From Phycisphaerae bacterium (GTDB lineage: Bacteria; Planctomycetota; Phycisphaerae; WQYP01): 64,000 bases of DNA. The notes beneath the pieces were generated by a model that saw only the letters and a program-made list of their open reading frames with translations, ran no database searches and was not told where the DNA came from. Positions 25,925 through 43,218 of this stretch are shown piece by piece. The stretch spans positions 9,454-73,453 of the forward strand of contig DASZTO010000096.1 of NCBI GenBank assembly GCA_035548175.1, in the 5' to 3' direction. Made by a program: the position numbers and the translations under genes. Within the stretch, counting starts at the first letter, position 1, and each line of letters starts with the position of its first letter.

Positions 25925-26172
25925 CCGGCGGACCGGAGGAGGGGGATCGGGCGCTCAGAGGGGGAAAAATGAGGGCATGGGCGTTGACAGTGCGGGGGGT
26001 GGGGCGTTAGAGTGGCCGATCTTGCTGCTGATTTGGCGTGCTTGTGTGCGTGAGATGGGTGGCAAGAGGCGTCGATTGACGCCGGCATGAACAACTGGAG
26101 TTTCTTCGGATCGCCCAACCAGAGTGATCCCGACCGGGCCTGAAACGGCGAGGTCTCCCCCCTCCCCCGAGG

Positions 26173-26205
26173 AGTCAGAAGTCAGTAGTCAGTAGTCAGA
26201 AGTGA
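26173..26205 (+). repeat. Heptamer tandem repeat (TCAGAAG/TCAGTAG)x4 in the rplC leader
   Basis: gagtcagaagtcagtagtcagtagtcagaagtgac. Confidence 0.7.
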
Positions 26206-26414
26206 CGGCGGACTAGTGGCTGTGACCGAGGGCGAGAGGCGGCTGCGAGATTGAAGATCGCCTAATACGGGTCCTGGTTCTGAGGCTGGTGGCTCCTCCC
26301 GATCCTTTAAGAGGGACGGGTGGCGAGACCAGACGGGATATCGCGGTGAACCTGACACTCTCTTCGCTGGAGAGATACGGGTTCAGATGAGGCAGCCGGA
26401 GAGAGAGGAATGCC

Positions 26415-27113
26415 ATGAGCGAGAATGGTACCGCTACTGCTATTGCCCCGTTAGCCGCCTTGCTGGGACGCAAGGTGGGCATGACCCGGATTTACGACGA
26501 GAAGGGCACGATTGTGCCGGTGACCGTCGTGCAGGCGGGTCCGTGCGTGGTGACGCAGGTCAAGACGGAAGACGGAAAAGACGGGTACAACGCGATTCAG
26601 CTTGGGTACGAGGACGTGAAAGAGCGTCGGTCGACCAAGCCGGTGGTGGGGCACTGCAAGAAGACGGGGCAGACCTCGCCGAAGCGTTTCTTCCGGGAAG
26701 TGCGGCTGAAGGACAAGGCGGGGATTGCTGCGGGGAGCACGCTGGACGTGGCGATTTTCGACACGATCAAGTGGGTGGATGTGACGGGGATTTCGAAGGG
26801 GAAGGGTTTCCAGGGCGTGATGAAGCGGTGGAACTTCGGCGGTCAGCCGGCGTCGCACGGGACGGAACGTAAGCACCGTTCGCCGGGCGGTATCGGTGGC
26901 GGCCAGGGCACTCGTGGTCACGGCCGGGCGATCAAGAAAGGCAAGAAGATGGCGGGGCATCTGGGGAGCGAGCAGGTGACGACGCGGAACCTGCTGCTGG
27001 TGGGTGTGGATAAAGAGAAGCACCTGCTGCTGATCAAAGGGACGGTGCCGGGCGCGAACGGCGAAGTGGTGTTTGTGCGGCAGGCGAAGACGATTTTGAA
27101 CAACACGAAGTGA
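26415..27113 (+). CDS. rplC: 50S ribosomal protein L3
   Basis: Conserved L3 sequence (LLGRKVGMTRIYDEKG..., FKGVMKRWNFGGQPASHG). No rpsJ upstream. Confidence 0.95.
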   Translation: MSENGTATAIAPLAALLGRKVGMTRIYDEKGTIVPVTVVQAGPCVVTQVKTEDGKDGYNAIQLGYEDVKERRSTKPVVGHCKKTGQTSPKRFFREVRLKDKAGIAAGSTLDVAIFDTIKWVDVTGISKGKGFQGVMKRWNFGGQPASHGTERKHRSPGGIGGGQGTRGHGRAIKKGKKMAGHLGSEQVTTRNLLLVGVDKEKHLLLIKGTVPGANGEVVFVRQAKTILNNTK

Positions 27114-27157
27114 GAAGTCAAAGACAGTAGTCAGAAGTCAGTAGACGGAAGACAGAA
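27114..27157 (+). repeat. Heptamer tandem repeat spacer (ACAGTAG, TCAGAAG, TCAGTAG, ACGGAAG, ACAGAAG)
   Basis: gaagtcaaagacagtagtcagaagtcagtagacggaagacagaag between rplC and rplD. Confidence 0.7.
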
Positions 27158-27169
27158 GCGGGTTGAGCC

Positions 27170-27835
27170 ATGATTGATGTGCCAGTGATGAATATCGAGG
27201 GGAAAGAGGTGGGGAAGTTTTCGGTGGACGAGGCGCTGCTGGGGACGACGGTGCGTCCGGCGCTGTTGAAGCAGGCGCTGGTGCGGCATCATGCGAACCA
27301 GCGTCAGGGGACGGTGAAGACCAAGAGCCGGGCGGAAGTTGAGGGCTCGACGAAGAAGCTTTATGCCCAGAAGCACACGGGCAACGCGCGTCGCGGGAAC
27401 ATCCGCACGCCGGTGATGAAGGGCGGCGGCATGGCGTTCGCGAAGGCCCCGCGGGATTTCCGGCAGGAGATGCCGGTGCAGCAGCGGCGGCTGGCGCGGA
27501 ACAACGCCATTTTGTCGAAGATTTTGTCGAACACGCTGGTGCTGCTCGATGGATTGAAGTTGCCGGCGGCGAAGACGAAGGAAGTGGCGAAGGTGCTGGC
27601 GGCGCTGAAGGCGGACCGTTCGGTGCTGATCGCGACGGAAGGGCTGGATCAGCAGTTGTATCGCTCGGCGCGGAACATCCAGAAGACGCTGATCAAGCCG
27701 GCGGCGGAGATCAACGCGTATGATGTGCTCTCGAAGCGAACGATGATCATGACGAAGGCGGCGCTTGAGGGCGTGCTCAAGGGCGCCAAGCCGAGCAAAG
27801 TGAAGACGGCGGAAACGGCCGAAGCGAAGGGATAA
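27170..27835 (+). CDS. rplD: 50S ribosomal protein L4
   Basis: Conserved L4/L1e sequence with a Lys/Ala-rich C-terminal tail. Confidence 0.92.
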   Translation: MIDVPVMNIEGKEVGKFSVDEALLGTTVRPALLKQALVRHHANQRQGTVKTKSRAEVEGSTKKLYAQKHTGNARRGNIRTPVMKGGGMAFAKAPRDFRQEMPVQQRRLARNNAILSKILSNTLVLLDGLKLPAAKTKEVAKVLAALKADRSVLIATEGLDQQLYRSARNIQKTLIKPAAEINAYDVLSKRTMIMTKAALEGVLKGAKPSKVKTAETAEAKG

Positions 27836-27877
27836 AGAGACCGGAGGCTTCGGCCTTCGTGTTTTTGAGGACGAATC

Positions 27878-28162
27878 ATGGAACTGCACGAGACAGAGAT
27901 TATCAAGTCGCCGGTGGTGTCGGAGAAGTCGACGTACCAGGCGGCGGTGCGGAACGCGTACACGTTCGAGGTGGACAAGAAGGCCTCGAAGGAAGAGATT
28001 CGCACGGCGGTGGAGAAGCTGTACAAGGTGAAGGTGGCGACGGTGCGGACGCTGAATGTGGCGGGCAAGCCGCGGCGGACGCGATCGGGCTACAAGACGA
28101 CGCCGGAGTGGAAGAAGGCGTTGGTGACGCTGGAAGCGGATAACAAGATCGATTTGTTTTGA
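27878..28162 (+). CDS. rplW: 50S ribosomal protein L23
   Basis: 94 aa, MELHETEIIKSPVVSEKS... L23 pattern. Confidence 0.9.
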   Translation: MELHETEIIKSPVVSEKSTYQAAVRNAYTFEVDKKASKEEIRTAVEKLYKVKVATVRTLNVAGKPRRTRSGYKTTPEWKKALVTLEADNKIDLF

Positions 28163-28164
28163 GT

Positions 28165-28215
28165 GGTGAGTAGTCAGAAGTCAGAAGTCAGTAGTCAGTA
28201 GACGGAAGACAGTAG
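28165..28215 (+). repeat. Heptamer tandem repeat spacer (TCAGAAGx2, TCAGTAGx2, ACGGAAG, ACAGTAG)
   Basis: gtgagtagtcagaagtcagaagtcagtagtcagtagacggaagacagtagg between rplW and rplB. Confidence 0.7.
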
Positions 28216-28224
28216 GGTTTAGAT

Positions 28225-29091
28225 ATGCCGATTAAGACTTACAAGCCGACATCCGCGGGGCGGCGTTTTTCGAGCGTGAACGCGTACGCGGAGCTGACGA
28301 CGAACGAGCCGGAGAAGAGCCTGCTGGAGCGGCGGAAGAAGACCGGCGGGCGGAACAACCGCGGCTGGATCACGTGCCGGCATATCGGCGGCGGGAACAA
28401 GCAGTTCTACCGCAAGATCGATTTCAAGCGGACGAAGGACGGGGTGAAGGGGAAAGTGGCGACGATCGAATACGATCCGAACCGGTCGGTGTTCATCGCG
28501 CTGGTGCAGTATGAGGATGGGGAGAAGCGGTACATTCTGGCGCCGCAGCAGATCAAGGTGGGGGATGAGATTGAATCGGGGACGAACGCGGACATTGAAA
28601 AGACGGTAGGGAACGCGATGCCGCTGGAGATTCTTCCGGTGGGCATGGAGATTCATAATATTGAGGTAGTGCCTGGGCAGGGCGGCCGTTTGTGCCGGAG
28701 CGCGGGCGGGGTGGCGCGGCTGATCGGCAAGGATGCGGGGTTTGCGACGGTGCAGTTGCCGTCGGGGGAAGTGCGGCAGATTCACTGGAAGTGCCGGGCG
28801 ACGATCGGGCAGTTGGGGAACTCGGATTGGATCAACATTCGGTGGGGCAAGGCGGGACGGACGCGGCATCGTGGGATTCGTCCGACGGTGCGTGGCGTGG
28901 CGCAGAACCCGGTGAGCCACCCCCTGGGCGGTGGTGAAGGGCGTTCCGGCGGCGGGCGGCACCCGGTGAGCAAGTGGGGCGTTCCCGCGAAGGGCGGCAA
29001 GACGCGAAATCCGCGGAAGAACTCGAGCAACAAGATCATTCGGCGCCGGATGACGGTGCGGTATGGCGAGTCGGTGCTGAAGCGGAAGTGA
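28225..29091 (+). CDS. rplB: 50S ribosomal protein L2
   Basis: Conserved L2 (GRNNRGWITCRHIGGGNKQ..., C-terminal GGGEGRSGGGRHPVSKWG). Confidence 0.95.
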   Translation: MPIKTYKPTSAGRRFSSVNAYAELTTNEPEKSLLERRKKTGGRNNRGWITCRHIGGGNKQFYRKIDFKRTKDGVKGKVATIEYDPNRSVFIALVQYEDGEKRYILAPQQIKVGDEIESGTNADIEKTVGNAMPLEILPVGMEIHNIEVVPGQGGRLCRSAGGVARLIGKDAGFATVQLPSGEVRQIHWKCRATIGQLGNSDWINIRWGKAGRTRHRGIRPTVRGVAQNPVSHPLGGGEGRSGGGRHPVSKWGVPAKGGKTRNPRKNSSNKIIRRRMTVRYGESVLKRK

Positions 29092-29094
29092 GCG

Positions 29095-29149
29095 GCGAGT
29101 AGTCAGTAGACAGTAGACAGAAGATGGAAGATAGAGACTAGGAAGACAG
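29095..29149 (+). repeat. Heptamer tandem repeat spacer (TCAGTAG, ACAGTAG, ACAGAAG, ATGGAAG...)
   Basis: gcgagtagtcagtagacagtagacagaagatggaagatagagactaggaagacagag between rplB and rpsS. Confidence 0.7.
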
Positions 29150-29151
29150 AG

Positions 29152-29433
29152 ATGAGTCGGAGCACGAAAAAAGGGCCGTTTGTGGCGGAATACCTTCTGA
29201 AGAAGGTGAACGAGCTGAACGCGCAGCGCGCCAAGACGCCGATCAAGACGTGGTCGCGGTCGAGCACGATCATCCCGGATTTCGTGGGGCACACGTTTGA
29301 GGTTCACAACGGGAAGGACTTCAAGCGGGTGTTCGTGACGGAAGACATGGTGGGCCACAAGCTGGGCGAGTTTTCGTTCACGCGGACGTTCAAGGGCCAC
29401 ACGGCGGTGAAGAAAGAAGAAGCTGCGAAGTGA
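29152..29433 (+). CDS. rpsS: 30S ribosomal protein S19
   Basis: [19 protein letters not shown]... conserved S19. Confidence 0.95.
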
Positions 29434-29503
29434 CGGAAGGCAGTAGTCAGTAGACAGAAGTCAGAAGTCAGTAGACGGAAGACGGAAGACGGAAGCAAAG
29501 ACG
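29434..29503 (+). repeat. Longest heptamer repeat spacer (10 units; ACGGAAGx4, TCAGTAGx2, TCAGAAG, ACAGAAG, GCAGTAG)
   Basis: tgacggaaggcagtagtcagtagacagaagtcagaagtcagtagacggaagacggaagacggaagcaaag between rpsS and rplV. Confidence 0.75.
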
Positions 29504-29517
29504 GTCTGAGGCTGGTT

Positions 29518-29955
29518 ATGGCGTATGTATCGAAATGGCGGTTTGCGAGGATCACGGCGCGGAAGGCGCGGCTGCTCACGGATTTGATCCGGAACAAGCC
29601 GGTGGACGAAGCGCTGGACCTTTTGAAGTTCAACAAGAAGCGCGGCGCGGTGATGGTGGCGAAGGTGCTCAAGAGCGCGATCGCCAACGCGGACGCGAAG
29701 GAAGCGGACACGGAGTCGCTGTTCGTGTCGCGCTCGTTCTGCGATGACGGGCCGATCATGAAGCGGTTCCAGCCCAAGGATCGGGGCAAGAGCTTTTCGA
29801 TTTTCAAGCGGCTGTGCCACATCACGGTGGAAGTGGATGAGGGCACGCCGAAGATGACGAAGGGCAAGCGGCGGAAGCTGGAGATTCGCCGGGACCGCCT
29901 GGCGAAGAAGAAGCCGGCTGGCGAAAAGAAGACGGAAGCGGCAGAGAGCAAGTAA
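29518..29955 (+). CDS. rplV: 50S ribosomal protein L22
   Basis: Conserved L22 core with a basic C-terminal extension. Confidence 0.9.
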   Translation: MAYVSKWRFARITARKARLLTDLIRNKPVDEALDLLKFNKKRGAVMVAKVLKSAIANADAKEADTESLFVSRSFCDDGPIMKRFQPKDRGKSFSIFKRLCHITVEVDEGTPKMTKGKRRKLEIRRDRLAKKKPAGEKKTEAAESK

Positions 29956-30002
29956 TTCGACTGGGCGCGGCAAGGCGGCGTCCGAACTGATAAGAGGTCA
30001 GC

Positions 30003-30701
30003 ATGGGTCAGAAGATACATCCAAATGGGTTCCGGGTTGGCGTGACCGAGGGGTGGAACAGCCGGTGGTTTGCCCCCAAGAAGCTGTTCGGGGAACTGCT
30101 GGTGGAAGACCAGAAGATCCGGGAGTACGTGGACAACAAGCTGAACCGCCAGCCGCCGTACGCGGCGGTGTCGAAGGTGGAAATCGAGCGCACGCGGGAA
30201 GAGCTCAAGGTGCTGTTGCACACGGCCCGTCCGGGCGTGGTGATCGGGCCCAAGGGCGCGGAAGTGGACAAGCTGCGGAACCAGCTTGAGGATTTGACCG
30301 GCCGTAAGGTGAAGGTCGAGATCGCGGAGATCGGCCGGCCCGACCTGAACGGTCAGTTGATGGCCGAGGGGATCGCGGAGCAGTTGAAGAAGCGGTCTGC
30401 GTTCCGGCGGGTGCTGAAGCAGAAGAGCGACGCGGCGCGGAATGCGGGCGCGAAGGGGATCAAGATCCAGCTTTCGGGCCGGATCGGCGGTGCGGAAATC
30501 GCGCGGGTGGAAAAGATGATCAACGGGTCGATCCCGCTGCACACGCTGCAGGCGAACATCAGCTATGGGCAGGTGCACTGCCGCACGCCGTACGGCGTGA
30601 TCGGGATCAAGGTGTGGATTTACCAGGGGACGTATGCGGAGACCGACGCGCAGGCGGCGGTGGCCGGGAGCAATCAGCCGCGGCGTCCGCGTCGCCGGTA
30701 A
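30003..30701 (+). CDS. rpsC: 30S ribosomal protein S3
   Basis: MGQKIHPNGFRVGVTEGWNSRWFA... KH domain plus S3 C-terminal domain. Confidence 0.95.
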   Translation: MGQKIHPNGFRVGVTEGWNSRWFAPKKLFGELLVEDQKIREYVDNKLNRQPPYAAVSKVEIERTREELKVLLHTARPGVVIGPKGAEVDKLRNQLEDLTGRKVKVEIAEIGRPDLNGQLMAEGIAEQLKKRSAFRRVLKQKSDAARNAGAKGIKIQLSGRIGGAEIARVEKMINGSIPLHTLQANISYGQVHCRTPYGVIGIKVWIYQGTYAETDAQAAVAGSNQPRRPRRR

Positions 30702-30758
30702 TGAGGACAGTCAACGATGGGCCGGCAATGAGGCTGGTTCCGAGACGGAGATACAGAC

Positions 30759-31178
30759 ATGGCGATGATGCCATCACGAGTGAAGTGGCGCAAGCAGCAG
30801 CGCGGGATCATGAAGGGGAACGCGACCCGGGGCAACAAGGTGAGCTTCGGAGAGTACGCGATCCAGTCGCTGGAGCCGGGCCGGATCAACGGCCGGCAGA
30901 TCGAAGCGGGGCGCATGGCGTGCTCGCACTATCTGGCGCGTGAAGGCCGGGTGTATATCCGGATCTTCCCGCACAAGAGCTTTTCGAAGAAGCCCCTGGA
31001 AACGCGTATGGGCACGGGCAAGGGCGAGCCGGAGTTCTGGGCGGCGGAAGTGAAGCCCGGGACGATCCTGTTTGAGATCGCCGGCGTGGACGAGACGGTG
31101 GCGCGGCGGGCGTTTGCCCGGGTGGCCTACAAGATGCCGGTGCGGTGCCGGTTCGTGAAACGGCGGCATACGCTGTGA
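30759..31178 (+). CDS. rplP: 50S ribosomal protein L16
   Basis: Conserved L16 (RMGTGKGEPEFWAAEVKPG...). Confidence 0.92.
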   Translation: MAMMPSRVKWRKQQRGIMKGNATRGNKVSFGEYAIQSLEPGRINGRQIEAGRMACSHYLAREGRVYIRIFPHKSFSKKPLETRMGTGKGEPEFWAAEVKPGTILFEIAGVDETVARRAFARVAYKMPVRCRFVKRRHTL

Positions 31179-31222
31179 CGAGAAGTCAGAAGACAGAAGG
31201 CAGTAGTCAGTAGAAGACGAGT
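31179..31222 (+). repeat. Heptamer tandem repeat spacer (TCAGAAG, ACAGAAG, GCAGTAG, TCAGTAG)
   Basis: tgacgagaagtcagaagacagaaggcagtagtcagtagaagacg between rplP and rpmC. Confidence 0.7.
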
Positions 31223-31228
31223 GAGCAT

Positions 31229-31447
31229 ATGGCCAGCGAGACGTTGAAAGAATATCGGGGAATGTCGGGGGAGCAGCTTCACGAGCATGAAGAGGAGCTG
31301 CGAACGAAACTGTTCAAGCTCAGGACCACGGCCTCGAGCGAGAAGGTGAAGGACGTGTCGCAGTTTCAGAAGATCAAAAAGGACATTGCGCGGATCAAAA
31401 CGATCCAGCGCGAGCAGGAATTGAAGAACGCGAAGGCCCAGGCGTAA
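31229..31447 (+). CDS. rpmC: 50S ribosomal protein L29
   Basis: 72 aa, coiled L29 pattern. Confidence 0.88.
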   Translation: MASETLKEYRGMSGEQLHEHEEELRTKLFKLRTTASSEKVKDVSQFQKIKKDIARIKTIQREQELKNAKAQA

Positions 31448-31453
31448 GCAGGA

Positions 31454-31861
31454 TTGAGAGATATGACGACGGCGACCCCAACCCAGAGCTCCGAATCCAG
31501 GCAGAACCGCAAACTGCGGAACCGGCTGATCGGCATGGTGACCAGCGACAAGGTGAACAAGACCCGCAAGGTCGTGTTCGAATACCTGGCGCGGCATGCG
31601 AAGTACAACAAGTACGTGAAGCGGCAGACGGTGCTGCACGTGCACGACGAGAAGAACGAGAGCCGGGTTGGCGACCAGGTGGAAGTGATGAGCTGCCGGC
31701 CCATCTCGAAAACCAAGACGTACCGGCTGGTGCGGATCGTGGTCAAGGGCACGCAGATCGACACGAGCATCCTGGAAGGCGAGGCGTCGAAAATGTTTGA
31801 GAAGAAGCGCGAGGAAGCGCCGGCAGCCACCGGCGGCGAAGCGCAACAGTCGGGTGAATAA
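31454..31861 (+). CDS. rpsQ: 30S ribosomal protein S17 (with N- and C-terminal extensions)
   Basis: Conserved S17 core (RNRLIGMVTSDKVNKTRKVVFEYLARHAKYNKYVKRQTVLHVHDE). Confidence 0.9.
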   Translation: MRDMTTATPTQSSESRQNRKLRNRLIGMVTSDKVNKTRKVVFEYLARHAKYNKYVKRQTVLHVHDEKNESRVGDQVEVMSCRPISKTKTYRLVRIVVKGTQIDTSILEGEASKMFEKKREEAPAATGGEAQQSGE

Positions 31862-31909
31862 TCGGCGGAGGACCGCCCGAAAGCGGCACTCCTTACGAGG
31901 TAACGAGAG

Positions 31910-32296
31910 ATGATTCAGCAGCAGACACGAGTCGACATCGCGGACAACACGGGCGCCAAGACGGCGATGTGCATCAAGGTGCTTGGCGGCTCGACGGCGC
32001 GCGGCAAGTTCACGCGCAAGGTGGCGAGCGTCGGGGACCTCATCGTGGTGGCGGTCAAGACGGCCACCCCCAACGGCGACGTGAAGCTGCATGATGTGGC
32101 CAAGGCGATCATCGTGCGGACGAAGCAGCCGATCCGGCGTTCGGACGGCAGCTACGTGCGGTTCGACCGCAACGCGGCGGTGATCGTGGACGCCGATGGA
32201 AATCCGCGCGGCACGCGTATTTTCGGCGCGGTGGCCCGCGAGCTTCGCGAGAAGAACATGATGAAGATCGTGTCGCTGGCGTCGGAAGTGGTTTGA
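31910..32296 (+). CDS. rplN: 50S ribosomal protein L14
   Basis: [17 protein letters not shown]... conserved L14. Confidence 0.95.
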
Positions 32297-32302
32297 CGAG
32301 TT

Positions 32303-32335
32303 GGTAGTGGTCAGTGGCCAGTGGTCAGTGGCCAG
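32303..32335 (+). repeat. Variant heptamer repeat (GTCAGTG/GCCAGTG)x4
   Basis: gtagtggtcagtggccagtggtcagtggccaga between rplN and rplX. A related copy sits between rpmJ and rpsM (40498-40525). Confidence 0.65.
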
Positions 32336-32355
32336 AACAGATAGGACGTTGAGAT

Positions 32356-32679
32356 ATGGCTGCTCGGATCAAGAAAGATGACATCGTGTTTGTTCGCTCG
32401 GGCGACAACAAGGGGAAGACCGGCAAGGTGCTGCGGATCGTCGGGGACAAGGTGATTGTCGAAGGCGTGAACGTGGTGTGGAAGCACCTGAAGCCGACGC
32501 AGCAGGCGCCCAAGGGCGGCCGGATTCAGAAGGAAGCGCCGATTCACATGTCGAAGGTGCAGCCGGTGGATCCCAAGACGGGCCGTGGGACGCGGGTGAA
32601 GTTCACGGTTGACAACGGTGAGAAGCACCGAGTGGCGGCGAAGACGGGCAACGATCTGGGTCTCGTGGGCAAGGCCTGA
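32356..32679 (+). CDS. rplX: 50S ribosomal protein L24
   Basis: KOW motif (IKKDDIVFVRSGDNKGKTGKVLRI). Confidence 0.92.
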   Translation: MAARIKKDDIVFVRSGDNKGKTGKVLRIVGDKVIVEGVNVVWKHLKPTQQAPKGGRIQKEAPIHMSKVQPVDPKTGRGTRVKFTVDNGEKHRVAAKTGNDLGLVGKA

Positions 32680-32751
32680 GGCATTTTGACGCTGAGGCAA
32701 CCAAGCGGTGAGAGCCGGCTTGGGGCCCGAGAGCGAATAAGGAAATAAGTC

Positions 32752-33573
32752 ATGGCGAAAGAAGAGAAGAAAGAAAAGAAGGCGGCCAAGACGCCCGAGC
32801 AGATCGAAGCCGAGAAGGCGGCGAAAGTCGCGAAGAAGGCGGAGATGGCGGCCAAGGCGAAGGAAGCCGTCGCCGGCGGCACGGCGGCTGCGCCTGCGGA
32901 AGGCGGAGAGGCGCCGAAGCCCGAGGGCAAGCCCGCGAAGGGCGGCAAGGGCGGCGGGAAAAAGAAGGAAGAAGGCGGGGAGGCGCAGGCGTTTCCGAAG
33001 GATTACGTTCCGCGGCTGAAGAAGCGGTACGAGGCGGAGATCGCGCCGGGGCTGATGGGGGAGTTGAAGCTGAAGAACAAGATGGCGTTGCCGCGGATCG
33101 AGAAGATCGTGATCTCGATGGGCCTGGGCAAGGCGATCGCGGAGAAGCCGCGGCTGGAAGCGGCGGTGAAGGAACTGACGGCGATTGCCGGTCAGAAGGC
33201 GGTGGTGTGCAAGGCGAAGAAATCGGTGTCGAACTTCAAGCTGCGTGAAGGCATGGAGATCGGCGCGAAGGTGACGCTGCGTGGCAACCGGATGTGGGAA
33301 TTCCTGGATCGGTTGATCGTGCTGGCGATTCCGCGTGTGAAGGACTTCCGCGGGCTCAATCCCAAGGGATTTGACGGGCGCGGGAACTACAATATGGGGA
33401 TCGCGGAGCAGACGGTATTTCCGGAAGTCGATTCGGCGGCGGTGACGTTCCACCAGGGGATGAACATCACGATCGTGACGACGGCGGGCGACAACGCGCG
33501 GGGCTTCAGCCTGCTCAAGCACCTGGGGATGCCTTTCCGGCAGGATGAAGCGCAGCAGAAGAAAGCCGGCTGA
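32752..33573 (+). CDS. rplE: 50S ribosomal protein L5 with ~90-aa Lys/Ala/Glu-rich N-terminal extension
   Basis: Conserved L5 core from about residue 95 (RLKKRYEAEIAPGLMGELKLKN...). The N-terminal MAKEEKKEKKAAKTPEQIEAEKAAKVAKKAEMAAKAKEA... is histone-H1-like low complexity. Confidence 0.9.
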   Translation: MAKEEKKEKKAAKTPEQIEAEKAAKVAKKAEMAAKAKEAVAGGTAAAPAEGGEAPKPEGKPAKGGKGGGKKKEEGGEAQAFPKDYVPRLKKRYEAEIAPGLMGELKLKNKMALPRIEKIVISMGLGKAIAEKPRLEAAVKELTAIAGQKAVVCKAKKSVSNFKLREGMEIGAKVTLRGNRMWEFLDRLIVLAIPRVKDFRGLNPKGFDGRGNYNMGIAEQTVFPEVDSAAVTFHQGMNITIVTTAGDNARGFSLLKHLGMPFRQDEAQQKKAG

Positions 33574-33623
33574 GAAAAACACGCAGAACGAGAGACGAAA
33601 GACGCAAGGCAAAGGGTAGATAG
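33574..33623 (+). repeat. Purine-rich spacer with GACGAAA-type units
   Basis: gagaaaaacacgcagaacgagagacgaaagacgcaaggcaaagggtagatag between rplE and rpsN. Confidence 0.5.
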
Positions 33624-33893
33624 ATGGCGACGACGGCTTGGAATGTTCGGTATAAGAAGCGGCTGGAGCTGGTGCAGAAGTATGCGGAGCAGCGCCGGAA
33701 GCTGAAGGAAGAGAAGAATTACGCGGCGCTGGCCAAGCTGCCGCGGAATTCGTCGCCGACGCGCCTGGCGCGGCGTTGCGAGCTCACGGGCCGGCGTCGC
33801 GGGTATTACCGCAAGTTCAAGATCTCGCGCATCATGCTGCGGGAGCTGGCGCACGCGGGCCTGATTCCCGGGATGCGCAAGAGCAGCTGGTAA
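33624..33893 (+). CDS. rpsN: 30S ribosomal protein S14 (long, 89-aa type)
   Basis: Conserved S14 ([35 protein letters not shown]). Confidence 0.9.
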
Positions 33894-33948
33894 AAGACGA
33901 ACGACGAAAGACAAAAGAACAAAAGACGAAAGTCGGACGAAATAGGGT
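33894..33948 (+). repeat. Purine-rich heptamer-like spacer (AAAGACG/AAAGACA/AAAGAAC units)
   Basis: aaagacgaacgacgaaagacaaaagaacaaaagacgaaagtcggacgaaataggg between rpsN and rpsH. Confidence 0.55.
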
Positions 33949-33954
33949 TTGATT

Positions 33955-34350: not shown

Positions 34351-34435
34351 AAACCGGAAGACGAAAGACGAATGTTTTTGCCGGATGGCCCGCCGAGGGG
34401 CGGATGAGACCGGACGGCGTTAAAGAGGTGATGTG

Positions 34436-35428: not shown

Positions 35429-35465
35429 CGCAACGACGACAAGACAAATAGACGAAAGACGAAAG
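35429..35465 (+). repeat. Purine-rich spacer with (GACGAAA)x2 units
   Basis: tgacgcaacgacgacaagacaaatagacgaaagacgaaag between rplR and rpsE. Confidence 0.5.
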
Positions 35466-35480
35466 TTTTTTTGGTGACCT

Positions 35481-35975: not shown

Positions 35976-35980
35976 CGCAA

Positions 35981-36005
35981 AAGTCAGTAGACAGTAGACA
36001 GAAGT
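35981..36005 (+). repeat. Heptamer repeat (TCAGTAG, ACAGTAG, ACAGAAG)
   Basis: aagtcagtagacagtagacagaagt immediately after rpsE. Confidence 0.65.
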
Positions 36006-36016
36006 TTTAGCGGGTT

Positions 36017-36048
36017 GCGGCTGGCGCGTGTCGGCCGCCCCTTTTTTT
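36017..36048 (+). terminator. Candidate intrinsic terminator/attenuator between rpsE and rplO
   Basis: Stem GCGGCTGG / CCGGCCGC (8 bp including two G-U pairs, 6-nt loop) followed by CCC TTTTTTT, a T7 run that is striking in this GC-rich DNA. It occupies the position where rpmD normally lies. Confidence 0.45.
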
Positions 36049-36143
36049 AGTGAAGAGCGAGGGGAAGCGGACGACGGGACGGATGCGGCAAGCTGCGGCT
36101 TCCCAAACATCGGTCCTTCGCTTCTCCGAAAGGAGTTCAAACC

Positions 36144-36695
36144 ATGATGATTCACGAGATTACGGCGCAGGTGGGAGCGCACAAGAAACGCATGCGGGTG
36201 GGACGCGGGGAATCTTCCGGCCACGGCAAGACCTCCGGCCGGGGTACAAAGGGCTCGGGCGCCCGCGCGGGTGGGGAAATTCACCTGGGTTCGGAAGGCG
36301 GAAACATGCCGCTGTTCCGCCGCCTGCCGAAGCGCGGTTTCAACAACAACGCCTTCGCACAGAAATTTTCGATCATCAACGTCGGCGATCTGGAGCATCA
36401 TTTTGAGAACGGGGCGACCGTTGACGCCTCCGCTTTGATTGCCAAGGGTCTGATCCGCGATGAGAAACACCCGGTGAAGGTGCTCGGAGACGGCGAGCTG
36501 ACCAAGAAGCTCACGATCGTCGCCGGCAAGTTCACCAAGCAGGCGTCGGAGAAAATCGCCAAGGCCGGCGGCACGGTGCAGACGCTGGAACTGGATCGCA
36601 ACAAGAACAAGGTGAACCCCAGGACGGGGCGCTTCAAGAGCCAGAAGCCGGCGGAAACCAGGAAGGACGCGGGCAAGGGCGCCGCATCGAAATGA
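36144..36695 (+). CDS. rplO: 50S ribosomal protein L15 (with C-terminal extension)
   Basis: Conserved L15 (GRGESSGHGKTSGRGTKG...). Confidence 0.93.
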   Translation: MMIHEITAQVGAHKKRMRVGRGESSGHGKTSGRGTKGSGARAGGEIHLGSEGGNMPLFRRLPKRGFNNNAFAQKFSIINVGDLEHHFENGATVDASALIAKGLIRDEKHPVKVLGDGELTKKLTIVAGKFTKQASEKIAKAGGTVQTLELDRNKNKVNPRTGRFKSQKPAETRKDAGKGAASK

Positions 36696-36746
36696 TGCGG
36701 CCGGGGGGGCGGCCCTGGGGATTTTCGGGGAGCGGGAGCGTTTGGG

Positions 36747-38314
<1,568 letters not shown>

Positions 38315-38318
<4 letters not shown>

Positions 38319-38968
38319 GAATTGCCCTCCTGGGGCCGCCCGGTTCCGGCAAGGGTACGCAGGCCCAGCGGATTTGCGAGAACTTCGGTCTGACCCACCT
38401 GGCGTCGGGCGACATCCTTCGGGCGGAGAAGGCCTCCGGTTCCGCGATGGGCAAGCAGATCCGCGACTTCATCGACAACGGATTGCTCGTTCCCGACGAC
38501 CTCATGATCGAGCTCATGAAGCAGAAAATCCTCGGGCTCAAAACCGGCTTCGTCCTCGACGGTTTTCCACGCACGCTGCCCCAGGCCCAATCGCTCAACC
38601 GCATGCTGTTCGATGTCGATCGGCCCCTGATGCTCGTGCTCAACTTCGTCGTCAATCCCAAGATCCTGGCGCGGCGCTTCGAAGGGCGGCGCATCTGCCC
38701 CGTCTGCCTCTCGGTCTATCACATTGATTCCAAGCCCCCCGTCGCCCCCGGAGTCTGCGATCTCGATGGGGCCGAGCTCATCATCCGGGAAGATGACAAG
38801 CCCGAGGTCGTGCAGAAGCGCATCGCCACCTACCAGGAGACGATGGCGCCGCTCATCGCCTACTATGCGCAGCTCGGCAACTTCAAGACCGTCGACACCA
38901 GCGCAACGGTCGACGAGGTCACCTCCCTGGTGCTCGAAAAAATTCGCCGGCACTTTGAGGATGAGTAG
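38315..38968 (+). CDS. adk: Adenylate kinase
   Basis: P-loop GPPGSGKGTQ and a zinc-binding lid (CPVC...C..D). Confidence 0.95.
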
Positions 38969-39038
38969 TTTCACAAAACCTGTAGCCAGTCACTCTGTCG
39001 CCGCTTGCCGGTGATGATCACGCGGTGGAAGGGGGGTT

Positions 39039-39833
39039 TTGAGATGTGGTATGAAGATCACTTTGAAATCGAAGCGGGACCTCGAGCTCATGCGGGCCGC
39101 CGGACGGGTCGTCTATCGCGCCCTGACGCGCGCCAAAGAGATGGCCGCCCCCGGCATGACCACCCTTGAACTGGACCGTATCGTGTACGATACTTATACG
39201 TCCGCCGGCGGTCAGGGCCTGTTCAAGTGGTATCCCACCTATGAGCCGGGCAAGGGCTTTCCGGGCAACACCTGCATCAGCGTGAACGACGAAGTCGTCC
39301 ATGGCATCCCTTCGGAGCGCGTGCTCAAGGATGGCGATATCGTGAGCGTCGATTGCGGAATTCGCCTCGGCGGATTCTGCGGAGATTCCGCCGTCACGCT
39401 GCTTATCGGAAACGTCTCCCCCGAAGCCAGACGCCTCTGCCAGGTCACCCAGGAAACCCTGGCCATCGCCGTCAAGGAAATTCGCCCCGGGCGGCGCTGG
39501 TCGGATGTGGCGTCGAAGATGCAGGAGCACGTGGAATCCAACGGAATGTCCTGCGTGCGGGAATTCGTCGGCCATGGCATCGGCGCCCGCATGCACGAAG
39601 ACCCTAAGGTGCCGAATTTCGTCTCGGGCGATTTCCTCAAGCGCGGTGACTTTTACCTGCAGCCCGGAATGACCCTCGCGGTCGAGCCCATGGTGATTCT
39701 GGGGAGCGCGGATGTGGTCGTGCTCGACGACCGCTGGACCGTGGTCACCAAGGATTCGACGCCCGCGGCGCACTATGAGCACACAATAGCGGTCACGGCA
39801 ACGGGCAGTGACGTGTTGACGGACGGACGATAA
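39039..39833 (+). CDS. map: Type I methionine aminopeptidase
   Basis: Conserved MAP metal ligands pattern (D..D..H..E..E). Start may be 39051 (MKITLKS). Confidence 0.93.
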
Positions 39834-39892
39834 AGTGTCAAGCCCCACGCGCACCCGCGGCAGCACGCGGGAGCGGCGGGCCATACGTAAGG

Positions 39893-40120
39893 ATGAACAT
39901 GCCGAAGGCAGATGCATTAAGGGTGGAAGCGACGGTGTTGGAATCGTTGCCGAACGCCATGTTTCGCGTGAAACTGGAGAATGGCAGCAACCACGTGCTG
40001 ATCGCGCACGTCTCGGGAAAGATGCGCATGAACTTCATCCGCATTTTGCCGGGCGACCGGGTGACCGTCGAGATGAGCCCCTACGACCTGGCCCGCGGCC
40101 GGATCGTGATGCGGAACTAG
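39893..40120 (+). CDS. infA: Translation initiation factor IF-1
   Basis: S1-like OB fold ([28 protein letters not shown]...). Confidence 0.93.
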
Positions 40121-40228
40121 ACGGAGGGGGGCGGCAGGGGGGGTGTATTGGGCGGATCGCGGCGTGTTCCCCCCGGGGGCGGGGGGGGGCGGTCGGGCGG
40201 CGGGCGGCGAAAGTTGGGGCGGCGGGCT

Positions 40229-40258
40229 TTTCATTTTGCGGAACAGTTGGTATAGTAA
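40229..40258 (+). promoter_or_regulatory. AT-rich island with promoter-like hexamers (TTCATT ...15 nt... TATAGT) upstream of rpmJ-rpsM-rpsK-rpoA-rplQ
   Basis: ttcattttgcggaacagttggtatagtaat stands out in GC-rich DNA. Preceded by G6/G7/C6-G5/G9 homopolymer hairpin tracts at 40126-40190. Confidence 0.25.
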
Positions 40259-40364
40259 TTGATTCGCCGCGGCGCACCGAGCTGCTGACGTTAAGAACAG
40301 GCCCAAACCTAATCGGTGTGCCCGGACGGCGGTATCGTCAGCAGATTGGAACAGGGAGCAAATC

Positions 40365-40481
40365 ATGAAAGTTCGGTCCTCCGTCAAGCGGATTTGTGAG
40401 CACTGCGTGATCGTGCGCCGGAACGGCGTATTGCGGGTGGTGTGCAAGGCCGATCCCCGACACAAACAGCGGCAGGGGTAA
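40365..40481 (+). CDS. rpmJ: 50S ribosomal protein L36
   Basis: [38 protein letters not shown] (38 aa, CxxC...C...H zinc ribbon). Below the ORF-track size cutoff. Confidence 0.9.
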
Positions 40482-40497
40482 AGCCCCCGCTCCAGTT

Positions 40498-40525
40498 GTC
40501 AGTGGCCAGGGGTCAGTGGTCAGTG
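40498..40525 (+). repeat. Variant heptamer repeat (GTCAGTG-type)
   Basis: gtcagtggccaggggtcagtggtcagtg between rpmJ and rpsM. Confidence 0.6.
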
Positions 40526-40624
40526 ACGGGCGCGAACACTGGCCTGAACAGACACGTTTACAATTCTGGCTGCGTCGCTCGATGCCGAAGGCTTAGACGA
40601 TAGCGGTCGCCGCAAGGAGTCAGC

Positions 40625-41011
40625 ATGCCCCGTATCGCCGGTATCGACATCCCCCTGGATAAGCAGATTCGCATCAGTCTCCGCTACGTCTATGGCATTG
40701 GCCCCGTCAATGCCATGGCCATCCTCAAGGAGGCCAACATCGACCCCATGAAGCGGGCGCGCGAACTTAACGAAGACGAAGTCGGCCGCATCGTCGGAAT
40801 CATCGACCGCTCCTATCCCGTCGAAGGCGCCCTCCGCCGGCAGATTCAGCAGAACATTCAACGCCTCAAGGACATTCAAAGCTATCGCGGGTCCCGCCAT
40901 CGCCGCAGCCTCCCGGTCCGCGGCCAGCGCACCCGCTCCAACGCGCGCACCCGCAAGGGGCCCCGCAAAACCGTCGCCGGCAAGAAGGGCGTCAAAGAGC
41001 TGCATGGATAA
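40625..41011 (+). CDS. rpsM: 30S ribosomal protein S13
   Basis: [26 protein letters not shown]... conserved S13. Confidence 0.95.
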
Positions 41012-41153
41012 CCGCGTCGGCAGAGGCCTGCGGCCGGCCATCAGGCTGCTCGAGAATCTGCCAACGACAACTGAAAACTATGTTGGGTGAGGACTAGCGG
41101 GGCGCGTCGCCCGGCCGAATCCGTTGGAAGCCCGTCAGATAAGGATTTGCACA

Positions 41154-41534
41154 ATGGCCAAAGCTGGCAAAAAGAAAATTCGGAAAAACGTCGTCAAAGG
41201 AATCGCCCACGTCAAGGCGTCCTTCAACAATACCCAGGTGACCATCACCGACGTCAACGGCGAGACGCTCGCCTGGGATTCCGCCGGAACCGTCGGCTTC
41301 AAGGGCGCCCGCAAGTCCACCCCCTTCGCCGCCACCCGCGCCGCGGAGCAGTGCGCCGCCAAAGCCAAGAAGTATGGCCTGCAGGAAGTCGAAGTGCGCG
41401 TCAAAGGGCCCGGCTCCGGCCGGGAGTCGGCGATCACCGCCCTCCAGAACAGCGGGCTGAAAATCACCGCCATCGAGGACAACACCCCGCTGCCCCACAA
41501 CGGCTGCCGCCCGCCCAAGAAACGGCGCGTCTAA
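41154..41534 (+). CDS. rpsK: 30S ribosomal protein S11
   Basis: Start MAKAGKKK (SD AAGGA) inside ORF 41124..41534. Conserved S11. rpsD does not follow. Confidence 0.93.
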
Positions 41535-41635
41535 CACCTTATCGATACACCATCACCAACCAGCAAGTTAACCGCTACCGTGATAGATGCTCTGATGAGC
41601 GATAATCCGGCGGCGATCATGTGAAAGGGAAATAT

Positions 41636-42658
41636 ATGCGTATTCGTTGGCGCGGCCTGGAATTGCCGACCCGGGTGGAACCCGATGAGCACCTGCTCTC
41701 CGATACTTTCGGTAAATTTGTCGTTGAACCTTTCGAACGCGGTTTCGGCACCACCGTCGGTAATTCGCTGCGGCGCATCCTCCTCTCCTCCCTCGAAGGC
41801 GCCGCCGCGGTGTCCGTGAAAATCGCCGGCGTTGACCATGAGTTCGCCCAGCTCGAAGGCGTGATGGAAGATGTCACCGACATCATCCTCAACATCAAGT
41901 CGCTCGTCATCTCGATGGAAGGCGATCAGCCCAAGGTGCTCTCGGTCACCAAAAAGGGGCCCGGCGTCGTGACCGGCGGCGATCTCACCGGCGATGCGTC
42001 CATCACGGTGCACAACAAGAACCAGGTCATCGCGACGCTCACCAACGAGAACGAGTTCAGCATGGAACTCGAAATCCACAAGGGCCGCGGATTCGTCACC
42101 GCCCTGGAAAACACGCCCGAAGAACAGATCATCGGCGTCATCCCCATCGACTCGGTCTACTCGCCCGTGACGCGCGTCCGCTACAAAACCGAGGACACGC
42201 GCGTCGGCCAGAAAACCAATTACGACCGCCTCATCCTCGAAATCTGGACCAACGGCACGATCACGCCCGAGATGGCCCTCGTCGAGGCCGCCAAGATTCT
42301 CCGCAAGCATCTCAATGCGTTCGTCCAGTATTTCGAGCCCGGCGAATCCATGGATGCCGAGCTGCCGGAACGCGACACCGTCGCCACGCCTCAGATGAAT
42401 GAGGAATTGCAGAACCGCCTCAACCAGCCCATCAGCACAATGGATTTGTCCGTTCGCGCCAGCAACTGCCTCGAATCCGCGAAAATCCACACCATCGGCG
42501 ACCTCGTCAAAATGACCGAGGGCGATCTCCTGAAGGTCCGCTCCTTCGGCAAGACCAGCCTTCGCGAAGTCAAACGGAAATTGCAGGATCTGGGATTGTC
42601 GCTGGGCATGACGCTCGGCGGAAACGCCGCCCCCGAACACGCACAGGCGGGCGCATAG
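41636..42658 (+). CDS. rpoA: DNA-directed RNA polymerase alpha subunit
   Basis: ATG 41636 (SD AAGGGA) inside ORF 41621..42658. N-terminal dimerisation domain plus alpha-CTD (SVRASNCLESAKIHTIGDLV). Confidence 0.95.
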   Translation: MRIRWRGLELPTRVEPDEHLLSDTFGKFVVEPFERGFGTTVGNSLRRILLSSLEGAAAVSVKIAGVDHEFAQLEGVMEDVTDIILNIKSLVISMEGDQPKVLSVTKKGPGVVTGGDLTGDASITVHNKNQVIATLTNENEFSMELEIHKGRGFVTALENTPEEQIIGVIPIDSVYSPVTRVRYKTEDTRVGQKTNYDRLILEIWTNGTITPEMALVEAAKILRKHLNAFVQYFEPGESMDAELPERDTVATPQMNEELQNRLNQPISTMDLSVRASNCLESAKIHTIGDLVKMTEGDLLKVRSFGKTSLREVKRKLQDLGLSLGMTLGGNAAPEHAQAGA

Positions 42659-42709
42659 ATAAGTTGCCACGGGTCGCTGGCCGACGGTCGTCAAAAGATC
42701 GCCGCACGC

Positions 42710-42750
42710 TCTGACTCCTGACTTCTGACTACTGACTTCTGACTACTAAC
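42710..42750 (-). repeat. Heptamer repeat in inverted orientation ((T[CA]CTGAC)x6 on the + strand; reverse complement is GTCAG[A/T]A)
   Basis: ctctgactcctgacttctgactactgacttctgactactaac between rpoA and rplQ. Same family as the forward spacers, but the mRNA copy is pyrimidine-rich. Confidence 0.7.
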
Positions 42751-42759
42751 AGGTGATTT

Positions 42760-43218
42760 ATGCGTCATAGAGTTGTTGGCCGCCGGTTGTCGGTGACGCC
42801 CTCCCATCGCAAGGCGATGCTCCGAAACCTGGCCCAGTCGCTCATCGAGCACGGCGAAATTCGCACCACCCTCCCCAAGGCCAAGGAACTCGTCCGTTTC
42901 GTCGAGCCTCTCATCACACAGGCCAGGAAAGGCACTCTGCACGCCCGGCGGCTGGTGATCTCCCGGCTTCAGGACCGCCTGATGGCCGACCCCAACGATC
43001 CGGAAATGCTCGCCGACGATACCGTCGTGCAGAAGTTGTTCAAGGAAATCGGCCCCGCCATGGCGGATCGCAACGGCGGCTACACGCGCATCGTGAAGAC
43101 CTCCGAATGGCGCATCGGCGACGCCGGCGATATCGTCATCGTCCAGCTGGTGGGCATCGCCAAGGTGCAGCCCAAGCCGCGGTCCAGGAAAAAAGAAAAG
43201 GCTCCGGCCGCGGCCTGA
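42760..43218 (+). CDS. rplQ: 50S ribosomal protein L17
   Basis: MRHRVVGRRLSVTPSHRKAMLRNLAQSLIEHGEIRTT... conserved L17 with a basic C-tail. Confidence 0.95.
   Translation: MRHRVVGRRLSVTPSHRKAMLRNLAQSLIEHGEIRTTLPKAKELVRFVEPLITQARKGTLHARRLVISRLQDRLMADPNDPEMLADDTVVQKLFKEIGPAMADRNGGYTRIVKTSEWRIGDAGDIVIVQLVGIAKVQPKPRSRKKEKAPAAA

Follow-up and report, generated by a model that had tools for sequence, protein, structure and literature searches.

Few gene arrays of bacteria are as conserved and as densely packed as the ribosomal-protein operons, and a 64-kb stretch of DNA from a soil Phycisphaerae bacterium (Planctomycetota; contig DASZTO010000096.1; herein referred to as the window) raises the question of why about half of the junctions in such a set of operons should hold the most mutable kind of sequence. 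The S10/spc/alpha ribosomal-protein supercluster lies at 26.4–43.2 kb on the + strand of the window, running from rplC to rplQ with secY, adk, map and infA included and no rpsJ, rpsD or rpmD within it, and many of its spacers consist of tandem 7-nt units. We propose that these spacers are heptanucleotide simple-sequence repeats, belonging to the same class as the short tandemly repeated repetitive (STRR) sequences, the TAACTGA repeats and the G-rich repeats of Xanthomonas and Nostoc, and that they may be born by slippage, filtered at the RNA level and kept as passive linkers, a reading to which we give slightly better than even chances.

Period 7 is the sole short period enriched in the window, as judged by Tandem Repeats Finder and by our own autocorrelation period scan: 65 scan positions have at least 18 of 21 matches at period 7, none at periods 4, 5, 6, 8, 10 and 11, and 17 at period 9, all of which were traced to one coding repeat. 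At a relaxed threshold, 14 period-7 arrays are intergenic vs. 2 coding, and arrays of periods 5 and 6 are mainly coding. The rplC–rplQ cluster contains 14 heptamer arrays of 3.6–9 units each, one in the rplC leader and 13 at gene junctions, which belong to a WAGWCRG family (AGTCAGA, AGTCAGT, AGACGGA etc.), a GTGGYCA family, an A-rich AAGACGA type and, before rplQ, the reverse-complement CTGACTW. An earlier reading of this DNA from its sequence only (herein the sequence-only reading) had described ribosomal-protein spacers made of tandem heptamers of these families, with a rpoA–rplQ copy that is the reverse complement of the main one, and both scans bear out the junctions as well as the units that it named. 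Its statement that the TCAGTAG family is absent from the rest of the window holds for that family, which is found only in the cluster; outside, there are arrays of other heptamer units, at 4424–4509 and 21524–21547, bringing the total to 16 in 64 kb. Additionally, the 4.9 kb of the contig covered upstream of the window contain a GGTAATT-type array, located 2.7 kb before the window start in a spacer between non-ribosomal genes. The arrays are nevertheless concentrated in the ribosomal cluster: counting spacers of at least 25 nt and applying one uniform array threshold, 11 of 26 cluster spacers carry an array vs. 3 of 31 other spacers of the same genome (Fisher p = 0.006). Cluster spacers measure ~40–85 nt with or without an array, and tight gene packing is abandoned by the clade as a whole.

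How these spacers change can be read from the same junctions in five relatives, L001–L005 (L6 protein identity 98, 78, 79, 74 and 71%), of which L001, a soil Phycisphaerae (Planctomycetota) metagenome-assembled genome (MAG), is the closest public genome, and in three more distant Planctomycetota (L014, L039 and L075), which have ordinary spacers of 0–35 nt and no arrays. L001, L002 and L003 carry arrays at most of the junctions where the window has them (ribosomal-protein identity of L002 and L003 to the window is mostly ~70–95%), with different copy numbers and units; at rplE–rpsN, for example, the window and these three genomes have four different units, AAGACGA, AAACACG, AAGGACT and AAACTGG. 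Between the window and L001, spacers have been replaced outright at rplV–rpsC, rpsQ–rplN, adk–map and the 5′ part of rpsM–rpsK, and the flanking genes are 93–100% identical. Several units are linked by single substitutions (AAGACGA, AAGACGG, AAGACAG, AAGTCAG, TAGTCAG, TGGTCAG, TGGCCAG), the pattern expected from mutation followed by spread within the array; over longer divergence unit sequences drift, with a small set of variants recurring along one array. An exact search with the S19 protein led to four independent assemblies, namely two NCBI MAGs, a Logan run and a JGI metagenome. L202 is 99.8% identical to the window over 6.65 kb, and among 12 junctions compared its sole difference in spacer length is in the rplW–rplB array; L203 and L204 have L001-type unit numbers, and the window differs from L001, L203 and L204 (~95% nucleotide identity) at most arrays. 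Unit-number polymorphism between near-identical genomes, which the sequence-only reading had proposed to look for at orthologous junctions, is a hallmark of slippage, and its suggestion of microsatellites expanded at the DNA level is supported in that unit number varies, units are replaced and the unit is common beside unrelated genes elsewhere.

The individual arrays, all on the + strand within the cluster, show the same behavior. In the rplC leader, ~5 AGTCAGW units (26170–26205) lie in a variable loop of a conserved structured leader, with equal copy number in L201. The rplC–rplD array (27114–27160; ~6.7 units of GAAGTCA/AAGACAG/TAGTCAG/TAGACGG) begins directly after the TGA and has two units fewer in L001 and L203, the rplW–rplB array (28166–28215; ~7 units, AGTCAGW then AGACRGW) is one unit shorter in L202, and the rplB–rpsS array (29097–29130; ~5 units) differs in unit number in L001, L203 and L204, with arrays also present in L002 and L003. 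At rpsS–rplV (29434–29497; ~9 units, CAGTAGT/CAGAAGT followed by GGAAGAC x3), L001 is ~4 units shorter and L002 has a GGTAATT hairpin instead; at rplP–rpmC (31181–31216; ~5 units), L001 and L002 have other unit mixes. The rplN–rplX array (32303–32336; GTGGTCA/GTGGCCA x4) lacks a stop-bearing unit and self-pairs through its TGGCCA palindrome (z = −3.2); L002 has 6 units there and L003 has GAAACTC units. Purine-rich units form a degenerate array at rplE–rpsN (33585–33610; GAGACGA/AAGACGC) and an array of ~6 AAGACGA-type units at rpsN–rpsH that begins at the base after the TAA (33894–33935), both with stops in no frame, as well as a short, weak array of 2–3 units at rpsH–rplF (34351–34375; GGAAGAC/GAAAGAC), with a conserved hairpin downstream of it. 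The rplR–rpsE array (35429–35467; ~5.6 units of ACGACGA/CAAGACA/GACGAAA) is longer in L001 and has C-rich CCACTRA units in L002, and the array after the rpsE stop (35979–36005; ~4 units of AGTCAGT/AGACAGT), at the stop-proximal end of the 168-nt rpsE–rplO spacer, corresponds to 5 units in L001, a GAAGCAA hairpin in L002 and GAAGCCA x4 in L003. The rpmJ–rpsM array (40496–40527; GTCAGTG/GCCAGGG) has a decayed inverted partner, CACTGGCC, downstream, where L002 and L003 have full hairpins. The C-rich rpoA–rplQ array (CTGACTW x6) occupies 42709–42750, with C-rich arrays at the same position in L001 (CTGACTA) and L002 (GACCCYA). Hairpins formed by a direct and an inverted array occur in L002 and/or L003 at rpmJ–rpsM, rpsK–rpoA, rpsE–rplO, adk–map, rpsM–rpsK and rplO–secY, and in L001 at rplV–rpsC. 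The window itself has such a hairpin outside the cluster (4424–4509, + strand; GAAACAA x4, loop, TTCTTGC x4; minimum free energy −31.7 kcal/mol), between smpB and a MetE-like gene and unchanged in L205 and L206; its other outside array, AAATCGA x3 (21524–21547), lies between divergent genes.

Neither the period nor the units are peculiar to this genome. As a control, 75 loci of other phyla (1.24 Mb) were collected by means of the same L6 query; they contain 24 period-7 arrays vs. 0–6 for any other period, located in Gemmataceae, Opitutae, Chthoniobacterales, Clostridia, Hyphomonadaceae and Gemmatimonadota; a Clostridia MAG, for instance, has AGTAGTCAG arrays and a Chthoniobacterales MAG an AGAAGTC/AGAAGGC hairpin. 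AGTCAGW arrays as such are found in Planctomycetota, Clostridia (L043) and Verrucomicrobiota (L022). When metagenome contigs were scanned for the exact pattern AGTCAGWAGTCAGWAGTCAG, it was present in at least 120 contigs (loci totaling 652 kb), whose GC contents range from 33 to 70%. The counts given for these metagenome loci, here and below, are among the matches listed. The 120 loci hold 241 period-7 arrays vs. 1–11 for other periods, indicating that genomes with one array usually hold others, of other units. A ribosomal-protein cluster is present in only 2 of the 120 contigs, plus one weak match to map only, and we therefore rejected the possibility that the AGTCAGW unit is specific to ribosomal operons. 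Indeed, of 20 array-flanking genes checked against Pfam, 19 gave clear domain matches, all different and non-ribosomal (including RNase E/G, OTCase, DHDPS, biotin carboxylase, TyrRS/TrpRS and MFS transporters). The sequence-only reading had held that equal frequency in random intergenic DNA would mark the repeats as a generic microsatellite; at the level of the repeat class this is what we find, heptamers being present in ordinary intergenic DNA, and the local enrichment in this operon stays.

Arrays or array hairpins also occur at rplN–rplX and rplF–rplR in Gemmataceae/Planctomycetaceae, a different class (L021, 7857–7887 and 10539–10669; L007, 7715–7847; L009, 7880–7980), and the GTGGGCA/GTGGCCA array of L021 at rplN–rplX shares its junction and very nearly its unit with the window, reflecting either deep conservation or convergence. 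In an Akkermansiaceae MAG (L066, 10480–10581), (GGGTTAT)x14 runs up to the contig end; either a very long array broke the assembly at this point or the repeat is an artefact of the assembly end.

The placement of the arrays follows a rule. Within the clade, arrays begin 0–19 nt past the upstream stop, also in spacers of >100 nt that have a conserved downstream part; they fill the non-conserved segment of the spacer and end before the ribosome-binding region or a conserved leader structure. For the metagenome contigs, all 120 listed loci were oriented so that the array reads AGTCAG, and genes were called with a GC3>GC1>GC2 filter and checked with Pfam. The distance from the array's 5′ end to the end of a gene on the same strand is at most 20 nt in 28 of 41 cases (median 8 nt), vs. 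6 of 40 for the 3′ end (median 86 nt; p = 1e-6); of the 28 stop-adjacent arrays, 8 include the stop codon itself. Genes on the opposite strand start next to that 5′ end, where 29 of 42 open frames reach the array vs. 6 of 40 on the other side, and in the six clearest cases Pfam N-terminal domains start 12–43 residues from the boundary. Viewed from the mRNA, a stop codon comes before the G-rich/purine-rich arrays and a start codon after the C-rich ones. The window conforms: its 13 arrays with more G than C abut stops, and the single array with more C than G, at rpoA–rplQ, ends 9 nt before the rplQ ATG. The sequence-only reading had taken this inverted copy as a sign of indifference to mRNA polarity, which is not borne out, since the copy obeys the rule. 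Across the clade, the nearer gene boundary is a stop for 34 of 38 arrays with G>C vs. 6 of 13 with C>G (p = 0.003).

The same asymmetry orders the two arms of inverted pairs. Among 62 inverted array pairs in all the loci collected, the 5′ arm has G>C in 58 and C>G in 1, with 3 ties (p = 2e-16), and in pairs that lack the searched family the G-rich arm comes first in 23 vs. 1. Strand-biased mutation cannot explain this order because an inverted repeat is identical on both strands. The polarity rule appears general, as the Xanthomonas GGGAATC repeats show both of its features (asymmetry and convergent pairs). Polarity and arm order are thus common to heptamer arrays of many units and phyla, having been noted earlier, in part, for one Xanthomonas G-rich repeat only, and they provide a concrete way into a phenomenon that, since 1990, has lacked an explanation in terms of mechanism.

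At the RNA level, the array spacers stand apart by composition. They have 39–52% GC in a 62% GC genome and 62–80% purine, the exception being the self-pairing GTGGCCA array (54% GC), and on the sense strand the 13 forward arrays contain 9–21% C and 23–44% G. Their predicted folding energy per nt is −0.02 to −0.17 kcal/mol, vs. −0.27 to −0.47 for most non-array spacers, which have conserved hairpins. Genes downstream of arrays have weak Shine–Dalgarno pairing (−4.6 to −7.8 kcal/mol, with a generic anti-Shine–Dalgarno tail and not the host's 16S), and rplQ, at the C-rich array, has a good AGGTGAT site. Weak structure and weak Shine–Dalgarno sites are compatible with a passive linker or a standby role.

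Several more specific roles were considered and rejected. As Shine–Dalgarno enhancers the arrays are too weak (~−5 to −6 kcal/mol with the generic tail). A special structure arising from the repeat arrangement finds no support, folding being no weaker than in dinucleotide shuffles except for the GTGGCCA array. As promoters or terminators the arrays fare no better, with counts in the cluster scan equal to those in shuffles; the only real-looking promoters in that scan are at 25984–26013 and 40228–40256, single arrays are unstructured, and at least 6 T in the next 12 nt follow 8 of 62 hairpin-type arrays. A scan of the whole window against Rfam 15 gave no family above the gathering threshold.

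The arrays, then, are strictly of period 7, change by whole units, turn over fast, take up the stop-proximal, non-conserved part of the spacer and keep their polarity across phyla. These properties are what we would account for by the following sequence of steps. Replication slippage of a 7-nt unit, the mechanism that Mrazek et al. (2007) are reported to have proposed for such repeats, would let arrays arise and resize. An RNA-level filter would then act on them: arrays that directly follow a stop codon would persist only if G-rich, C-poor and purine-rich in orientation, and those of C-rich orientation only where they immediately precede a start codon or form the 3′ arm of a hairpin. C-rich, untranslated and unstructured RNA is the substrate on which the termination factor Rho loads. 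As the favored cause of the polarity we hypothesize the avoidance of exposed RNA of this kind; the G-rich arm, made first, would offer Rho no loading substrate, and the C-rich arm, made second, would be paired at once or covered by initiating ribosomes. Within the operon, the arrays may serve as passive, structure-free linkers of ~50–60 nt that leave neighboring cistrons uncoupled, hold termination apart from the next initiation and keep weak Shine–Dalgarno start sites accessible.

Heptamer arrays are a class already known, including their presence in ribosomal operons, their inverted pairs and their positional asymmetry. Heptamers are described as the most abundant class of long simple-sequence repeats (LSSRs) in prokaryotes, and a proposed explanation is slippage connected with the footprint of the polymerase (Mrazek et al. 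2007, as summarized in PMC4679880 and PMC4692102). As far as these summaries go, LSSRs resemble the present arrays in the over-representation of tandem 7-nt units relative to other unit lengths (with an excess of period 7 over each other period of at least 20-fold here), their mostly intergenic location and the slippage origin proposed for them, and differ in that the survey held no Planctomycetota MAGs and that no concentration in the ribosomal-protein supercluster is described. Three features of the LSSR/STRR class are found here, namely at least three head-to-tail 7-nt copies, a mainly intergenic location and unit-number polymorphism between close relatives. STRR heptanucleotides are known from the cyanobacteria Calothrix and Nostoc (Mazel et al. 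1990, as mentioned in PMC4692102). On the evidence of that mention, they are likewise several tandem heptanucleotide families dispersed in the intergenic DNA of one genome, in another phylum and at another GC content. The STRR2 unit is reportedly TTGGTCA, which resembles the GTGGTCA family of the window.

Known from marine Beggiatoaceae, cyanobacteria and Bacteroidetes, the TAACTGA direct repeats (MacGregor 2015, PMC4679880) are intergenic, have 2–6 copies, lie in some cases inside ribosomal-protein operons (upstream of L3, S4 and fusA), adjoin start codons that lack a canonical ribosome-binding site, have no predicted folding and occur in several phyla. The reverse complement, TCAGTTA, resembles TCAGTAG at 5 of 7 positions; however, none of the window's units (WAGWCRG, GTGGYCA, AAGACGA) matches TAACTGA. 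Whereas the Beggiatoaceae genome is dominated by one unit, mostly just upstream of starts, several families coexist here, and 13 of the 14 cluster arrays abut the upstream stop in purine-rich orientation, only the rpoA–rplQ array lying just before a start. The GGGAATC/GGGGAYT heptamers of Xanthomonas and Nostoc (Rehm et al. 2015, PMC4692102) are 89–93% intergenic and vary strongly in length and sequence between related species; those of Xanthomonas lie on average 28 nt from the 5′ open reading frame (ORF) vs. 160 nt from the downstream ORF and form 70–75 convergent inverted pairs per genome, and one repeat is inside the operon pecE–pecF. In Nostoc, deletion of heptamer repeats changed reporter output modestly (bioRxiv 10.1101/2022.06.06.494920). 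Positional asymmetry and G-arm-first pairing are shared with the present arrays. Unlike these G-tract, G-quadruplex-capable repeats, however, the window units have no G-runs (the only GGG is one degenerate GGGG in the rpmJ–rpsM array), and enrichment in ribosomal operons is not reported for the Xanthomonas/Nostoc repeats. Our literature search found no earlier report of such heptamer arrays in Planctomycetota, and what is unusual here is their density, with arrays at one junction in two of the bacterial operons that are conserved best. The generality of the polarity rule also emerges from the comparison.

Several observations weigh against slippage-born, passive linkers. The enrichment in the ribosomal cluster is not predicted by pure neutrality, and arrays are kept at the same junctions even where the proteins have diverged substantially. 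A specific trans-acting factor, or else horizontal spread, could be behind the recurrence of an identical AGTCAGW unit in three phyla and in the metagenome contigs across their wide GC range, and the slippage account leaves period 7, rather than 5, 6 or 8, without explanation. The weak structure of the array spacers is due to composition alone (z about 0 against dinucleotide shuffles). Lastly, the polarity rule has exceptions within the clade, such as the C-rich arrays that abut stops at rplR–rpsE in L002 and at rplE–rpsN in L001.

It is conceivable, though unlikely, that heptamer arrays are instead a selected, cross-phylum RNA-level module and not junk microsatellites, their near-absolute polarity springing from one constraint, and that this clade recruited them as tunable linkers. 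If so, the constraint could be, for example, that C-rich single-stranded RNA is kept from Rho or that an RNA chaperone working in a heptad register loads in a fixed direction, and each linker would set the output of one ribosomal-protein cistron without strong Shine–Dalgarno sites or translational coupling. The spacers change between strains with identical proteins, which would mean either that spacing and sequence are irrelevant to balanced ribosomal-protein synthesis in this lineage or that they are being tuned.

A more specific proposal would have the arrays act as docking platforms for an RNA-binding protein that reads a 7-nt register (candidates being a cold-shock-domain protein such as CspB, or ribosomal protein S1 through its S1 domains) and thereby regulates or enhances translation. 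S1, Csp or CsrA binding has been proposed for the TAACTGA repeats (MacGregor 2015, PMC4679880), and CspB is stated, in work cited there, to bind heptamer repeats with one protein per heptamer. The register is strict across very different units and phyla, the AGTCAGW unit recurs in many lineages, the Shine–Dalgarno sites downstream of arrays are weak and polarity relative to start and stop codons is strict, all of which a platform would accommodate. We nonetheless consider it unlikely, as one operon holds at least three unrelated unit families and sister genomes hold others at the same junction, leaving no common recognition motif; moreover, unit number varies between near-identical genomes, some orthologous junctions have no array, and most G-rich arrays abut the upstream stop and not the downstream start.

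Alternatively, the functional unit could be the hairpin formed by a direct and an inverted array, stabilizing or processing mRNA as an exonuclease barrier or RNase III site, with the single arrays of the window as half-elements that have lost one arm. The 62 inverted pairs, with a median minimum free energy of −50 kcal/mol, invite this interpretation, as do the full hairpins of L002 and L003 at rpmJ–rpsM, rpsK–rpoA, rpsE–rplO and adk–map, where the window array is single or decayed, the window's own full hairpin after smpB and decayed partner at rpmJ–rpsM, and the convergent pairs of Xanthomonas (PMC4692102). However, 12 of the 14 arrays in the cluster stand without a partner and have essentially no structure, single arrays are kept with the same unit in the window, L001 and L002, and the T-rich tail seen after 8 of 62 hairpins means that most are not canonical terminators; we find a hairpin element improbable. 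Such an element would recall the repetitive extragenic palindromic (REP) sequences and bacterial interspersed mosaic elements (BIMEs), since hairpin-type heptamer arrays are also transcribed intergenic hairpins located after genes and inside operons. REPs of enterobacteria are imperfect palindromes of ~35 nt with a conserved head, mobilized by RAYT transposases. The present arrays differ in having tandem 7-nt units of variable sequence and in being mostly single and unstructured in the window, and no conserved palindrome common to them was found by junction comparison and inspection of 60 loci.

Mobile or horizontally spread sequences that insert beside gene boundaries would explain the AGTCAGW arrays of Planctomycetota, Clostridia and Verrucomicrobiota in contigs of such varied GC content, as well as the whole-spacer differences between the window and L001, and horizontal transfer has been argued for the TAACTGA repeats (MacGregor 2015). 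This is very unlikely: inspection of 60 arrays showed neither conserved ends nor target duplications nor a transposase associated with them, the single-substitution network of units fits drift in place, and changes are of whole units, as slippage predicts.

The sequence-only reading had offered an all-frame stop cassette as one possible function, in which the 7-nt period puts TAG or TGA in each frame and so ends frameshifted or read-through ribosomes between cistrons. Four arrays (rplC leader, rplW–rplB, rplB–rpsS and rpoA–rplQ) do cover all three frames, and the metagenome arrays that contain the gene's own stop codon (8 of 28) can be counted in its favor. Three-frame stops, however, require a stop triplet in the 7-nt unit, which AGTCAGA, GTGGTCA, GTGGCCA and AAGACGA lack, as do the GAAGCCA and GAAACTC units at orthologous junctions of relatives; 10 of the 14 arrays fall short of three-frame cover and 3 have no stop at all. 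Neither are stop-bearing units enriched: among 111 distinct unit types from all loci collected, leaving out the family used as search pattern, 58.6% contain a stop triplet on either strand vs. 53 ± 3.5% in base-shuffled units, and three non-array spacers of 66–142 nt likewise reach stops in all three frames. The stops show no sign of being a selected feature and, judging from the sequences, the arrays are not stop cassettes; that function is largely refuted and we regard it as highly improbable. Least credible of all, and for practical purposes dismissed, is an assembly artefact at low-complexity sites, for which there is no evidence, as the same arrays in the same unit order are carried by four independent assemblies from different samples and pipelines and over its first 14.4 kb the window is matched at 100% identity by a Logan contig, although short-read assemblers can shrink or expand tandem repeats and exact unit numbers may be slightly off.

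Conserved sequence adjoins several of the arrays. The rplC leader, ~350–390 nt long (26020–26414), lies behind a TTGACA-18-TAGAGT promoter-like site (25984–26013) and has counterparts in L201 (6930–7273), L002 (1686–1974), L003 (1773–2073), L004 (1460–1777) and L005 (1420–1725), in the last of which it is located between rpsJ and rplC. Between the window and L201 its conservation exceeds that of the coding sequence; long-range helices are predicted, with compensatory changes in 10 of 52 pairs across six genomes, and it has no Rfam match. We regard it as a candidate for a new leader RNA of ribosomal-protein genes. The genes that precede the rplC promoter are wholly different in the window (19000–25900; DegT and xylose-isomerase-like genes) and the 95%-identical L201 (1–7270; FtsY, ParA-like and histidine kinase genes), and homology starts exactly at the promoter, indicating a rearrangement breakpoint there.

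Other segments are conserved in the window and L001–L004 while the adjoining arrays vary, at 34376–34432 (rplF), 40270–40364 (rpmJ), 40540–40624 (rpsM), 41080–41150 (rpsK) and 41580–41635 (rpoA), with the motifs GCCGGATGGCCCGCC...GGCGGATG.GACCGGACGG before rplF and GCTGCTGACG...CGTCAGCAG before rpmJ; these are probably autoregulatory leader structures, and have no Rfam match. In the rpsE–rplO spacer (36006–36143), a terminator-like hairpin with a T7 run (36017–36047) is followed by a block, AGTGAAGAGCGAGGG ... CCGAAAGGAGT, that is conserved in L001, L002 and L004 and occupies the usual place of rpmD (L30), no L30 gene being present there; the conserved element upstream of rplO in the clade looks like a cis-regulatory RNA and likewise has no Rfam match. 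Upstream of rpmJ, a promoter-like site with an extended −10 (40228–40256) is preceded by a ~100-nt G-rich tract after infA (40121–40230; runs of 6–9 G), which is G-rich with other sequence in L001 and absent in L002 and L003.

The sense strands of the whole window are strongly purine-loaded, with a GC skew of ~+0.2 to +0.34 for + genes and ~−0.24 to −0.38 for − genes and an AT skew of up to +0.27 in the ribosomal cluster. L5 (rplE; 273 aa) has a Lys/Glu/Ala-rich N-terminal extension of ~90 residues (32752–33020) that is 100% conserved in L001, and short purine repeats (GAAAGAAAAGAA) occur within the first 30 codons of rplE. Inside a 181-aa ORF (18118–18663), positions 18538–18648 form a coding tandem repeat of period 9/18/39 (AACAACCCGAAC..., encoding an Asn/Pro-rich peptide repeat). 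Finally, L205, a contig 100% identical to the window, has a CTCAGGA-type array of 4.7 units (1130–1162) inside a called 585-aa gene without Pfam annotation, which is either a coding array or a wrong gene call.

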